Of a stretch of DNA of 64,000 nt, positions 12,878-61,263 are shown one piece after another. The notes under the pieces are model-generated. The model was given only the letters and a program-made list of their open reading frames with translations, ran no database searches and was not told the DNA's origin. Positions within the stretch are counted from its first letter, which is position 1. Every line of letters starts with the position of its first letter. A program made the translations under genes and the position numbers. The stretch is taken from assembly GCA_951406725.2 (NCBI GenBank), contig OX597817.1:112406001-112470000 (forward strand). The letters run 5' to 3'. This DNA comes from Octopus vulgaris. Taxonomy: Eukaryota.

Positions 12878-12917
12878 ATATTTTGATAAGCATAACAAAT
12901 GCGCAACCGGTAAAAAG
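12878..12917 (+). ncRNA. Minimal type I hammerhead ribozyme motif, U3-A8 core; GAAA mutated to GCAA
   Basis: tt TTGATAA gcat-aacaa-atgc GCAAC cg GTA aaaag. Confidence 0.6.
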
Positions 12918-13192
12918 AACTTTCACCTAATTAAATTACTTAAATTACTTCAATTATTTGTCAGCATTTTCTTCATTTCCTTTTTTATATATATATATGT
13001 ATATACATATATATATATATTGATATATATAGTTATATATATTATTAATAATTAGGAAATGTAATAATTCCAAGCTAACAGGGAAAAATTTCAATTTAGT
13101 GCACTAAATCAAAATTCACAATATTATATATATATATATATATATATATATATATATATATATATACACAGAGAGAGAGAGAGAGAGAGAGA

Positions 13193-13666
13193 GAATTTAG
13201 AGACAAACCAGTATTTAGTTATTCCATCAACAGTGAATTAATATTACCTATAATAACCACATAGAAATTAATAGAAATTATAATCATTATTCTAAAAAAT
13301 CTCATAACAAATAAAACATTAAATTAACTATGCTTTACATTAATATTGCTAAATTTTATCGAATTATTTAATGTTAATATACATATATTTTTATATTTAA
13401 TGTTTTATTATATCTAAATTTATTTACGTTATTTGTTTACCTGAAGAGTGGCCAAATATTTTAAACTTGAATTAATATTAAATTTTAATATTATTAAATT
13501 TATATATTTAGTCATGAAACGCGCGTAGTCAATTTAACGTTTGCTTTGTTATGAGATTTTCAGAATAATAATTATAAGATATTTTTATTAATTTTCATGT
13601 GGTTATTATAGATAATATCTTTAAATTATTGATGGAATAACTAAATAGCGGTTTGTCTCTAAATTC
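13193..13666. repeat. Fold-back: about 145-bp inverted repeat flanking a hammerhead motif (inverted PLE pseudo-LTR)
   Basis: gaatttagagacaaacc...ctcataacaaa...aactatg (13193-13340) is the reverse complement of cgtagtcaatttaa...ggtttgtctctaaattc (13524-13666). Confidence 0.85.
13436..13532 (+). ncRNA. Hammerhead ribozyme motif with long AT-rich stem II loop
   Basis: tttac CTGAAGA gtggc [about 58 nt AT-rich] gtcat GAAAC gcgc GTA gtcaa. Confidence 0.55.
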
Positions 13667-13899
13667 TATATATATATGCACTCATCAGATTTTTAATTAT
13701 TTCAACACATCTTCAGGTTCTTTTTCTAAATATTGTTAATCTAATTCTAAATCACCTTAAAATTAAGCATTAAATCAAACATTAAAAATTTAAAATTATA
13801 CTATATAAAATTAAGAATTCAAATTATAAATTATACATTATAATATTAATATATGTATACTAATTCATAATTATAAAGTTAAGTATATAATGTCAAATA

Positions 13900-15680
13900 C
13901 AAAATGTAAGATATAAAGTTATGCATCAGAATAAAAATATCTGTGATTAAATGTGAAGAATAACATGAAAAAAGCTTATACATATCTTCCTTTTATGGAA
14001 CCAAGGGGTCTTTCAAAATGGGGATTAGAGGACTGAAACTCTGGAATTCTACCCGTGACATTATCAAATGGTTTAATACTATTCAGAATAAGAATATATG
14101 TAAATTCCTTCAAATTGATATTGAGAATTATTCATTTATCAATGAAGTGGCTTGAAATATGTCATTTGTCATGAGAAAGGTAAATATGTCATTTGAAGAA
14201 GTCAAAATGGTGTTGGCCGCAAGGAAGTCTGTTGTAAAATATAAAGATAAACCAGGGGCAAGAAAAGACACCAGAGATTGTTTTTGATATGCCCATGGGT
14301 GCCCCCAATGCTCCCAGGTTATCCATCTAGTAGGATTATACCTTTTATCTGAACTAGAGATAGAATTTACGAATATAGAGAGTGGTCTTTATAGGGACAA
14401 CCTACTACTTATAACCAGGAACTGCACTAATAGGTCAATAGAATGCCTTATGAAGAAAATGTATAAGTCCTTTAAGAATTATGGCCAAGGGATATCTGTA
14501 GAGAATGAACACTATGCAGTAAATTATCTGGATGTCAACCTTAATCTAGTCACTAATAAGATCCATCCATTCCATAAGTTGAACGAAATTTAATGTATAT
14601 TAGTTCTATAAGTAACCATCCTAGATCAGTGAAATAAGCTTTAATAGATAGCATAGGCAAAAGAATATCTATGCTATCCTCAGATTATGACACTTTTAAT
14701 AAACAAGCCCCATATTATTATAAGGCATTAAATGAAGAAGGATATAACTAATATAAGATCCTTTAATTATTACAAACACCTTAATAATATAACAGGTAAT
14801 CCAAATAATAATTGTAACAGTAAAAATATGAATAATAAAAAAATACTATATAAGAAACTAAATAAAGATAAAAACAATATAGTTATTAATAATGATTACA
14901 ATAATAATAGTAATATTGATAATGAGAAAGAATATGATCAATAGTAAGAGACAGTAAATTATACAAGCGGAGATATAATACACCTAAGAATACTGATGGT
15001 GTCTAATAATGATATAAAAAATATACAAAATAAAAAGGACATTATATGGTTAATTATTGCGTATGGGGCTCAAGTCATGACTAATATTAAGGAGACACTT
15101 GAAATTGTAAAAATGTCTTTTAAAAAGGACATCATTTATTCAAATATATTTTCCAATGAAACCATAAGAGTGGGCTACTCAACATCGAGGAATATAGGTA
15201 ATATCATTTCCTCTATAAATAATAAGAAATTAAATAATAATTATAATAGCACAATAAGTAATAACTCTAGCCATAACATAACCGATAGTGATGGGAGCCT
15301 TAATCAACATATAGAAAAATGTTCATGTCGTGATAAGACTAAATGTAAGCTCTCTAATAATTTTAATATTGATAATGTAATTTATAAATGTTTAGTAAGC
15401 TCTAAGAACAATAATAATAAAGTTATAAATAAAGTTCATATAGGATCTACTGCTAATGAAATTAAAAAAAGAATCTCTCAACACTACCAGACCTTCAAAC
15501 ATCCTAATTTAAATAGGACCATAGGTTTAGTAAATATACATGGGAATTAAAATTTAGACAAAGAGATTACACCCTTAGTTGGAGTATAATAGGTAGAGCC
15601 CACTATTATAATATTGGGAACAAAATGTGTTTATGTATAACAGAATTTATGAAACTGCTACAGTCTAGAGATAAATTACT
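13900..15680 (+). mobile_element. Decayed Penelope-like element, Naiad-like
   Basis: Frameshifted motifs LQIDIENY, MGAP, GLYRD, YLDVNLNL, SNHPRS, IIW...V.TNI, NETIRVGYSTSRNIGNII, CSCRDKTKC...VIYKC and HIGST...KKRISQH (GIY-YIG). Confidence 0.75.
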
Positions 15681-15796
15681 AAACACACACACACATATAC
15701 ACACATATATTTATATATATATATGTATACACCGAGAGATTTTCGTATGCGGGCATGGTTGCGTGCATATATGTACATGTGTATATGTGTGTATAT

Positions 15797-58337: not shown

Positions 58338-58820
58338 CTGTGGAAATCTTAAAGTTTAGTTAAAATTTTAAAATTTGATGTATTTTAAATTGGGGTATTG
58401 ATGTAATAATCTTCGACGCTGAATCTCAGAAACTATTCCCTTTGTCCAGAATTATCATTATTTTTTTTTAATGTTACAGAAGTCTAAATTTTGATCATTT
58501 TTACCCAGTCAGAAAACAGGATTTGGAAGCTGTCATTTTGTGCATGACAGCACGTGTTGTCAGCTGCAAACATTTTCTGAAAATTCCAAATAATAAGAAA
58601 GTTATGAGGGTTTATATGGCGTGCGTAAAGCAGAATTCAGCTAATATGTATGTATGTATGTATGTATGTATGTATGTATGTATGTATGTATGTATGTATG
58701 TATGTATATGTGTTTGTGACATTATTTTTGAATGCTGTATGCAAAAACATAGGATACAGGCATTCTTTTTCTTGGGACAAATTTTTCATTGGCTAATGTT
58801 ATTCTTATCGTAGTTATATA

Positions 58821-59200
58821 GGCGCAGGAGTGGCTGTGTGGTCCCACTGCGTGGCACCTTGGGCAAGTGTCTTCTATTGTAGCCTCGGGCCGACCAAAGC
58901 CTTGTGAGTGGATTTGGTAGACGGAAACTGAAAGAAGTCCGTCGTATGTATGTATATATATATATGTGTGTGTGTGTGTGTGCGTGTATGTTTGTGTGTC
59001 TGTGTTTGTCCCATCCAACATCGCTTGAGAACCTATGCTAGTGTGTTTATGTCCCCGTCACTTAGCAGTTCGGCAAAAGTACTGGGCTTACAAAGAATAA
59101 GTCCCGGGGTCGAGTTGCTCTATTAAAGGCGGTGCTCCAGCATGGCCGCAGTCAAATGACTGAAACAAGTAAAAGAGTAAAAGAGTAAAAGAGAGAGAGA
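58821..59200 (+). mobile_element. tRNA-derived SINE with internal microsatellite (small deletions)
   Basis: Matches the 27096 copy. Confidence 0.85.
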
Positions 59201-60083
59201 GTTACAAATCTAAGCAGGAAAACTTTCCTCAGATTTGAAGTTTTGGAGACAGATGCCCCCCCACCACCACCAAATACACACACACACACACACGCACGTA
59301 CTTATATATTAAGGATGAGAGGCAATCATAATACTGAAATACGTATAAAGTAAACATATGTAGACAAATCTATTAATATTACAAATTTAAAAAAAAATCA
59401 TACCATCAATGAAGAGACAAAAGAAACAGTAATATGATACATGTTGATTTTATCAGGTATTTCTGTTTATTTAGAAACCTACATTTCACAGACGCTAAAC
59501 TATAAATTTCACAGGGTACAACCTTAAAGTTGACACCGTTCTGCTAAACGCAGAAAATTTCAGTCTCGCTGTTGGCTATAAATACAGTTTTTTTCGATTT
59601 TTAAACCTCTGTATACTTTTTCCTTCAATTATTTTTCTCGACCACATCATACCTCACCATACCTTCAAAGCAATTAGATTGGAAAACTTTACTATTATAG
59701 CCGATTTTCTGATTTTTTACTGTCTTTTAAAAAATGCATAGTTTGCGAATGAAAAAAAAAACTAGATCCCTTTTCTTATGAGTACTACCGGATTACTTGA
59801 ATCCATATATTGTGACATATAGATATTGTGACATATAGATAATATAGATATATATATATATATATATATATATATATATATATATATATATATATATATA
59901 TATATATATATATATATATATATATATATATATATATATATATATATATGTAGTTGTAAAAAGCTTAGAGATCCATACAAATCAGATTTTTATATAGAAA
60001 AGATGGAGGTGGAAATAGTACAGAAGTAAGTCTAAGATATTTCAATTTAAGAGGGAATTTAATAAAAAAAATTATATCTAGAA

Positions 60084-60123
60084 AATATTACCGGTTTCGA
60101 TGTATCTCATCTTATCAAATATC
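60084..60123 (-). ncRNA. Intact minimal hammerhead ribozyme motif, U3-A8 core
   Basis: gatat TTGATAA gatg-agata-catc GAAAC cg GTA atatt; all three helices can pair. Confidence 0.75.
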
Positions 60124-61223
60124 AGTAAAATTTTTTTAAAATTTGAAGTAAAAACAGTTTATCTTCTGTCTGGCGGTCAAGTACATGTCTGGAGATTTTT
60201 CATTGAAATCTTTAAATATAGTTTGGTATAGAGTTCAAAGTGTTAGAGAGTCAGAGAAGGGGTGTTTAGGGAGTGGCTAAAAAGGCATTTATTAAGTGGG
60301 TTTTATGTCCACCTGTGTGTGTGTGTTGTGCTCTGTTGTGTTGAATGTCCTTTCAAGATGATTTGAAAAATGACCAGTTTTGAGTTATGGGTGTGTTGTG
60401 AAGTACGTCTTGTTGAAGAAAGAATTAGGATTTTTCGTTGGGTTAGATGCACTCTTTTGAGTGTCTCCTCCTGCGTGTATGTGTGTGATCACTAGCTGTG
60501 TGTATGTGTGTGTGTGTGTCTTTGTGCGTGTGACTGTGTTTTTGTGTGTGTGTGTGCTGGCATATATGAATATCGGAAAAAGGATTTAGGAAATGATGGG
60601 AAGTATTTTTCAAAATGATAATATGTGTAAAATTGCTTTTAAGTGTCTGTTCTTATTTATTGCTTGTGGTTGGGTCTATATTTAATTGTGGTTTATACAT
60701 GTTGATCAATTGTCTTTCTTTATTCAGTCTTTATTGTTGTTTGAAGGAATCTGAGCACTTGTAGAGAGGAAATATTTTGAAATTTGCTAAAACCATTCCT
60801 GCACAGGTTGTAATGTGACTGCTTAGGGGAATTTTCCTTGTACATTTTGTCTTGAATCTATTGGCAATGGGTCGTCATTCTGTTGCGTAACGATCCGCCC
60901 GTCTGACCTATGTAATTATGTTGGCAACCATTGCATGTGATTACGTAGATCACAACATACACACCCATCAACTCACAGCTGGTCACTTCTCAAAACATAT
61001 TGAAAAGACATTCAACACAATACACACACACACACACAGAGGTGGCAGAAACACAAAGATTTCTTTTAGACAATAGACATCCCTTCTCTCACTCTCTAAC
61101 ACTTTGAACTCTATACCAAACTATATTTAAAGAAGACTTCAACGAAAAATCTCCAGACATATACTTGACCGCCAGACAGACGATAAACTGCTTTTACTTC
61201 AAATTTAAAAAAAATTTTTTACT

Positions 61224-61263
61224 GATATTTGATAAAATGAGATACCTCGAAACCGGTAATATT
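61224..61263 (+). ncRNA. Inverted copy of the U3-A8 hammerhead (stem II mutated)
   Basis: gatat TTGATAA aatg-agata-cctc GAAAC cg GTA atatt. Confidence 0.6.

Follow-up and report, generated by a model that had tools for sequence, protein, structure and literature searches.

The window analysed here is a stretch of 64,000 nucleotides of the Octopus vulgaris genome (GenBank assembly GCA_951406725.2, contig OX597817.1, forward-strand positions 112,406,001 to 112,470,000). It holds three Penelope-like elements (PLEs) that between them carry four hammerhead ribozyme motifs, first noticed by a model that had read the sequence alone (the original prediction). All four motifs are minimal type I hammerheads with a U3-A8 core pair, they lie in the pseudo-long terminal repeats (pseudo-LTRs) of three Neptune/Nematis-like families, and in this genome the 3' ends of U6 small nuclear RNA (snRNA) are found joined to such elements at the predicted cut of the motif. 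The features concerned are as follows.

9775..12992 (+): element 1, a 5'-truncated copy of the young PLE family F1, with (TA)n at both ends and without the optional tail of ~40 nt
9914..12163 (+): frame of element 1 for reverse transcriptase (RT), a CX4CxxC linker and a GIY-YIG endonuclease (EN), 749 aa from stop to stop
12883..12912 (+): hammerhead of element 1, minimal type I, with U3 at 12883, A8 at 12888, C13 at 12904 and the predicted cut after 12912
47910..48590 (+): element 2, an old 5'-truncated PLE consisting of an EN tail and a pseudo-LTR, ending in (TA)n
48431..48458 (+): hammerhead of element 2, U3-A8 minimal, GAAA intact
59990..60952 (-): element 3, an old, frameshifted, 5'-truncated PLE consisting of an EN tail and a pseudo-LTR
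60089..60118 (-): hammerhead of element 3, U3-A8 minimal, predicted cut after 60089
60943..61348 (+): inverted 5'-truncated pseudo-LTR of element 3 (85.5% identity over 421 nt by self-BLAST)
61229..61258 (+): second motif of element 3, U3-A8, with a decayed stem II

The pattern TTGANAA-N8..20-G[AC]AACCGGT has exactly four matches in the window, at 12883-12911 (+), 48431-48457 (+), 60118-60090 (-) and 61229-61257 (+), and no match in any of 100 dinucleotide shuffles of it (100/100 empty). These are the four motifs that had been predicted, except that the minus-strand copy starts at 60118 and not at about 60115. Read as a hammerhead, the core consists of U3 U4 G5 A6 U7 A8 A9, a 4-bp stem II, G12 A13 A14 A15.1, the palindrome ACCGGT and the cut triplet GUA, the last supplied by an A directly 3' of each match. 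Palindromic stem III and triplet are present in all four motifs, as is U3-A8, a Watson-Crick pair, and GAAA is intact in three of them. The GCAAC of the 12883 copy places a C at position 13 (12904), which is the state of its whole family and not the quirk of one copy; the other three motifs (48431, 60118 and 61229) keep A13. The stem II sequences are those described originally, one for each element (GCAT/ATGC, GCGT/ACGC and GATG/CATC), and pairing holds at every element, but at 61229 two private changes (G10.1 to A and one other) have abolished the closing G10.1-C11.1 pair of that copy. The best-formed motif is that at 60089..60118 (-), with 5 bp in stem I and 4 bp in stem II. Stem I is weak in element 1 (2 bp, one mismatch, then more pairs), while in element 2 its first pair is mismatched family-wide and this copy has two private changes in the 3' strand. 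In predicted homodimers, an intermolecular ACCGGT helix belongs to the lowest-energy fold for three of the four motifs. An Rfam scan of the window found no hammerhead among 72 matches at E values up to 1, only weak microsatellite-driven hits. Because each copy is 5'-truncated and the two motifs of element 3 face in opposite directions, probably none of the copies in the window is active.

The three elements are related, as had been proposed: tblastn with the open reading frame (ORF) of element 1 matches the EN tail of element 2 (47904-48155, 48% identity) and that of element 3 (60953-60671, 34-46%). Their untranslated regions, judged unalignable by eye, indeed give no match to one another by self-BLAST. 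The 61229 motif lies in an inverted duplicate (59998-60408 versus 61348-60943), a known layout of PLE insertions (PMC3846280, PMC8557442). Element 1 aligns at 97-100% with all 30 of its 30 top family loci, and over the RT-EN frame 30/30 top loci match a full F1 copy at 99.1-100% identity. Its own frame carries RVT_1 (Pfam, E 2.8e-7) and GIY-YIG (E 2.3e-6) domains and the motifs GLKF, DKG, YLDD and YIG; a C-run near 9990 is shorter than in most F1 copies, whose frame has 784 aa. The linker CNRPNCGIC at residue 618 has the CX2-5CxxC form that marks Neptune and Nematis PLEs (PMC8557442). F1 has two alternative 3' ends ~40 nt apart, each followed by (TA)n, and the full unit measures 4,463-4,478 bp and stands in tandem at 4 of 10 extended loci. 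A sister family, F2, has 73% protein identity to F1 and keeps A13, and the relatives of element 2 are 72-92% identical to it. The motif sits 170-1,900 nt 3' of the RT-EN frame.

An ORF1 of ~430 aa that overlaps the 784-aa RT-EN frame is present in full units of F1 and F2 and in a relative with 45% identity (L263:1559-2851, L194 and L293). ORF1 gave no Pfam match at cut-off, and the F1 and L293 versions share 31% identity. The overlap contains an in-frame TTTTTTA heptamer (UUUUUUA; 9840-9846 in the window) and is likely a site of programmed -1 frameshifting. Canonical EN+ PLEs have a single ORF, and the legend to Fig. 1 of the same survey mentions a frameshifted ORF1 with the clade unnamed (PMC8557442). 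Relatives of the element protein were also met in records labelled as bacterial genomes (L281-L291; P0027, P0040, P0050 and P0073), which are most likely host DNA in metagenome bins.

To place the U3-A8 core in the genome as a whole, we counted cores in its 2.8 Gb with stem III fixed as ACCGGT, which leaves aside hammerheads whose stem III differs or whose stem II is long. There are 613 matches with TTGATAA and 10,941 with TTGAVAA (reversed-pattern controls 18 and 58), so that U3-A8 makes up 11,554 of the 12,418 ACCGGT cores, which is not a share of all hammerheads. The other states of the 3-8 pair are far rarer: C3-G8 has 190 matches (control 29), U3·G8 377 (46) and C3·A8 297 (50). In the examined loci, the motif lies within 1,100 nt of 108 of the 142 endonuclease-end matches, with T at position 3 in all but one, which ties the core to this RT-EN clade. 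A protein tree of 47 rows, made by a quick method with unnamed relatives only, joins all families of this genome in one clade (SH-aLRT, an approximate likelihood ratio support, of 100) together with five proteins lacking visible DNA. Six relatives from other samples (44-52% identity) carry C3-G8, four of them with the same ACCGGT, while a more distant outside relative (L285) has U3-A8; in the remaining outside loci of the tree our script found no motif. As the families form one clade while the relatives from other samples keep C3-G8, U3-A8 is probably derived and inherited in this clade.

The stems of the motif covary between the families. From 159 motif contexts we formed 24 groups, of which the 13 with at least two contexts were used. 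Stem I has 36 Watson-Crick cells out of 52, against 16.6 with partners shuffled between families, and stem II has 42 against 20.2 in the same shuffles; neither value was reached in 10,000 shuffles (0/10,000 each), which ignore kinship among the sequences. In a hand-chosen alignment of 15 motifs, 89.6% of cells are paired against 57.0%, with a covariation score of 0.78 against 0.20; sliding the partners gives much lower values, and the 3-8 pair is UA in 11 motifs and CG in four. Position 7 varies, and G at position 17 occurs in one context only among the 13 families, matching the hammerhead consensus. The catalytic positions are invariant across families at 55-73% protein identity, position 7 being free.

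These results bear on whether the motifs could be independent decays of a canonical CUGAUGA hammerhead, the case that was to overturn the original prediction. In favour of decay, there are old, AT-rich copies, and C-to-T and G-to-A are common changes. U3-A8 is nevertheless the state of young, near-identical copies, it is ~60-fold commoner than C3-G8 among ACCGGT motifs, and both single-change classes are rarer than the double change, for which reasons we reject decay and give it a vanishingly small probability. The proposal of a lineage-wide core that CUGANGA-only searches would miss is borne out by the counts, the tree, the covariation and the empty Rfam scan. The accompanying claim of selection stands as far as an inherited family state and covarying stems are concerned, but does not extend to strict Watson-Crick selection at 3-8, since U3·G8 and C3·A8 subfamilies have amplified (see below).

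Family F1 combines the U3-A8 core with C13. Its motif has 1,810 exact copies in the genome, and 18 further F1 copies have another base at position 13 (16 T and 2 G, none A). Searching with the downstream flank gave 96 F1 copies, of which 82 reach position 13, all with C (82/82), and 14 fall short; no other letter was seen there in the eight public runs examined, nor was there any loose end at the cut, but these runs consist of contigs only, which cannot show RNA ends. The F1 unit contains no second intact hammerhead beyond two chance matches in the coding region. In minimal constructs, cleavage is almost lost when A13 is changed. The strict hammerhead consensus includes A13 (PMC3088659), a base from which the 12883 copy and F1 alone depart, the other three window motifs keeping to it, and it pairs non-canonically with base 17 (PMC7092961). 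We found no report of an A13C hammerhead in the open-licence literature, although a study of variant small hammerheads in PLEs by Lunse, Weinberg and Breaker may cover A13 or similar changes.

Indirect evidence on cutting came from U6 snRNA. While testing 5' junctions, we saw two F2 loci in which U6 abuts position +1 of the predicted cut. We surveyed the genome with the 27-nt 3' end of U6 (166 exact matches, of which 93 were examined) and with four gap-tolerant junction patterns. Identified as U6 by Rfam (RF00026), the joined sequence ends in five T at the junctions and adjoins +1 at 10 loci in four families:

F2 group, six loci (L548, L561, L665, L666/728/729, L726 and L727): U6 joined at +1
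F1 (A13C), two loci (L719/721/722 and L724/725): U6 joined at +1
F3-related family, one locus (L675): U6 joined at +1
F4, one locus (L702): U6 joined at +1, with 13/14 letters matching

At the two F1 joins the downstream sequence is that of two subfamilies with C13 throughout; one of them (L724/725) retains only ~29 nt of U6, which Rfam did not call. Among 100 distinct U6 ends, 11 rows from nine loci are at offset 0. Another 22 rows at other offsets are chance matches to a short interspersed element (SINE) or to a TA run beside the motif and were set aside by eye, and four junction-pattern matches (L723, L731, L732 and L734) proved not to be U6. In five element units, no U6 was found joined elsewhere in the PLE. 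The joins share one structural position in four families whose post-cut sequences differ, with the full five-T end of U6 and no microhomology. The ligase RtcB joins the cyclic phosphate of U6 to the 5'-OH of a partner, and the LINE-1 junctions made in this way are variable (PMC6789731). A U6 junction fixed at the ribozyme site therefore fits a 5'-OH made by the ribozyme, that is, cleavage in vivo. A search of the open-licence literature, judged by titles and the beginnings of abstracts, found no PLE-U6 fusions, and on octopus hammerhead ribozymes it found nothing about U3-A8 PLE hammerheads.

A comparable joint involves another ribozyme. At two loci (L373/L374; G000:C1:1716122 and 1719702) the 5' piece of a retrozyme hammerhead, which stops with GTC at the cut of that ribozyme, is joined to position +1 of F1; this chimera looks like the ligation of two ribozyme products. 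Other joins were seen in passing. The 3' ends of SINE-like repeats are apparently joined to F2 at +1 of the cut (L564 and L566/L567), with no Rfam match. U6 is also joined to AT-rich sequence ending in (TA)n, in the inverted or fold-back layout typical of PLE insertions (L671 and L697). Most dispersed U6 copies continue into one of a few SINE-like repeats or into unique DNA (L631-L720), and one set forms a tandem array of U6 genes (L638-L644).

Taken together, these observations lead us to consider it quite probable that the inherited U3-A8 minimal hammerheads of this Neptune/Nematis-like clade cut element RNA after GUH in cells, probably in dimeric form and with low efficiency. Two motifs, in tandem pseudo-LTRs or on two RNAs, would pair through the shared palindrome ACCGGT, and the core of one would cut its partner after GUH, leaving a 5'-OH. 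This end may occasionally be ligated to the 2',3'-cyclic phosphate of U6 by an RtcB-type activity, and the ligated product would then be copied by the element RT into TA repeats. Judging from sequence, cleavage in living cells appears likely even for F1, whose core change would be expected to cripple it.

Several points weigh against cutting of this kind. The junction pattern for F3 gave no U6 join, that for the element 3 family gave two matches, neither with the post-cut sequence of the family, and none was found for the element 2 family, which was not searched by pattern. The 5'-truncation junctions of F2 are unenriched at the cut, with 11/30 at -2..+1, 10-11/30 at +2..+4 and 4-5/30 at -5..-3, the ranges reflecting two rows (L596 and L614) reassigned by eye. 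In a deep-mutational study of another hammerhead, the only swap that rescued activity in this region was C-G to G-C (PMC9901934), PLE minimal hammerheads cut poorly even as dimers (PMC4209133), and for an anole PLE, mutating the ribozyme left insertion in vitro unchanged, and none of the reads ended at the cut (PMC11167929). Finally, impaired cores have amplified. The U3·G8 copies make up a single clade (support 0.996) that lies within a set of U3-A8 subfamilies ~94-95% identical in DNA; a ~360-bp tandem retrozyme-like family (L034-L040 and L211-L230) holds a derived C3·A8 subfamily; and of the first 30 of 191 matches, 15 belong to an F1 sub-lineage with an insert of 200-310 nt at the cut (L736, L738, L743 and others). 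Because these subfamilies have multiplied, impaired forms can be copied for a while, and cutting likely helps the element, although some rounds can do without it. In the retrozyme-like family, midpoint rooting places U3-A8 copies at the base and both the C3·A8 and C3-G8 subfamilies as derived, a natural path back to the canonical pair. A supposed F1 subfamily without the motif was rejected, as its copies carry the motif together with the ~200-310-nt insert at the cut.

It could be argued from such forms that the motif is kept as a structure or a protein-binding site and no longer cuts, the +1 end arising where transcription starts or where a protein nuclease cuts, with U6 added by template jumping. 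A13C is fixed in a thriving family, the wobble, mismatch and insert-at-cut subfamilies have amplified, Naiads thrive without canonical hammerheads (PMC8557442), and the anole mutants show that insertion in vitro is not blocked by loss of the ribozyme (PMC11167929). This account would still have to explain why U6 is joined at the same structural position in four families with its full five-T end and no microhomology, and why the catalytic positions are invariant between families while position 7 is free, and we regard it as distinctly improbable.

A second question is which core cuts F1. F1 could be cut by another family because each core of a double hammerhead acts on the partner strand and ACCGGT is common to all families; intact U3-A8 cores would then cut in trans an F1 that is catalytically dead. 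The strict conservation of A13 speaks for this, as does the weak stem I of F1, whose post-cut strand pairs about equally well with the 5' strand of F4 (2 bp, then mismatches). At most two contiguous pairs to that post-cut strand are offered by any family, however, two different RNAs would have to meet, and the F1 motif is otherwise unchanged across subfamilies whose flanks differ by indels, which is suggestive, although the changes are too few for significance. On balance we think cutting in trans rather unlikely and give self-cutting by F1, perhaps with the help of a protein, an even chance; a cause other than these two is more unlikely still. A broader proposal can be put forward tentatively, with slightly less than even confidence: that the U3-A8 core with A13C works in vivo in a family of ~2,000 copies, either by protein-helped self-cutting or by being cut by other families through the genome-wide palindrome, and that U6 fusions at the cut could serve as a general DNA read-out of PLE ribozyme variants cutting in the germ line.

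The window contains further features beside these elements. Inside a palindrome at 13192-13667 lies a hammerhead-like motif (13441-13527, +) whose core has the canonical C3-G8 pair, whose stem II is long and AT-rich and whose stem III is ACGCGCGT; it was spotted by eye, failed our structure filter, and is probably the end of another PLE type. A second long-stem motif with a canonical core, at 48730-48835 (+) inside the palindrome 48620-48846, has G12 changed to A, while the mirror arm retains GAAAC-GATC-GTC. At 14100-15810 (+) there are decayed frames resembling RT and GIY-YIG that belong to another, distant type of PLE, with no Pfam match for 14948-15547. Elsewhere, a long uninterrupted frame at 1862-3406 (+) with Polycystin and PKD channel domains represents the end of a host polycystin-family gene. 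A long interspersed element (LINE) with a zinc-knuckle ORF1, endonuclease and RT lies at 38520-42927 (+), with a related fragment at 15798-16390, and an RTE-like RT fragment lies at ~37480-38390. An inverted-repeat element at 51034-51863 has arms of ~250 nt (87.5%) that enclose a run of TTAGGG repeats.

The U3-A8 core has been published before and is not a discovery of this study, which sets aside the novelty that the original prediction had left unconfirmed. It was described in the Cercyon PLEs of Schistosoma mansoni, with ~1,300 matches and low activity as dimers (Cervera and De la Pena 2014, PMC4209133), and natural U3-A8 covariation, said to be active in vitro, was reported by Perreault et al. 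(2011, PMC3088659). With Cercyon and other metazoan PLE minimal hammerheads, the octopus motifs share the type I layout, the palindromic 15.2-16.2 region, the location in pseudo-LTRs, many families per genome, inverted pairs and, with Cercyon, the U3-A8 core. Unlike in Cercyon as described there, U3-A8 is dominant in a whole clade here, one family has A13C fixed, and the genome holds a trace of cutting in vivo. Among the natural core variants, weak stems and a U10.1-U11.1 mismatch also occur; the section text on them names A6C, A6a, U13a and U15.1-A16.1 and no A13 substitution such as that of F1 (PMC3088659). What is added here is A13C fixed in F1 and the U6 record at the predicted cut. According to the 2014 paper, evidence that PLE hammerheads cleave in vivo was lacking (PMC4209133), and the ten U6 fusions are such evidence for U3-A8 cores. 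Close young subfamilies form a natural allelic series (U3-A8, U3·G8, C3·A8, C3-G8, U3-A8 with A13C, and insert-at-cut) that makes ribozyme function testable, and CUGANGA-only searches would overlook more than 11,000 motifs in this genome.

The elements resemble the Neptune and Nematis EN+ PLEs of Craig et al. (2021, PMC8557442) in their C-terminal GIY-YIG domain, CX2-5CxxC linker, (TA)n targets, tandem and inverted pseudo-LTRs and optional tail, a likeness by features, our tree having no named references; unlike in that description, full F1 and F2 units have an ORF1 of ~430 aa. The Poseidon element PAc of the anole (Frangieh et al. 2024, PMC11167929) likewise carries a hammerhead in its pseudo-LTR and has a tail delimited by two 3' ends, but its core is C3-G8, it needs its protein to cut, and no RNA ends were seen at its cut. 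The closest parallel to the U6 joins is provided by the chimeric U6/LINE-1 pseudogenes (Moldovan et al. 2019, PMC6789731), in which the 3' T-tract end of U6 is likewise joined to retroelement RNA and retrotransposed. The junctions of those chimeras are at variable positions, whereas each of the 10 PLE junctions assigned here falls on the predicted cut of the ribozyme.

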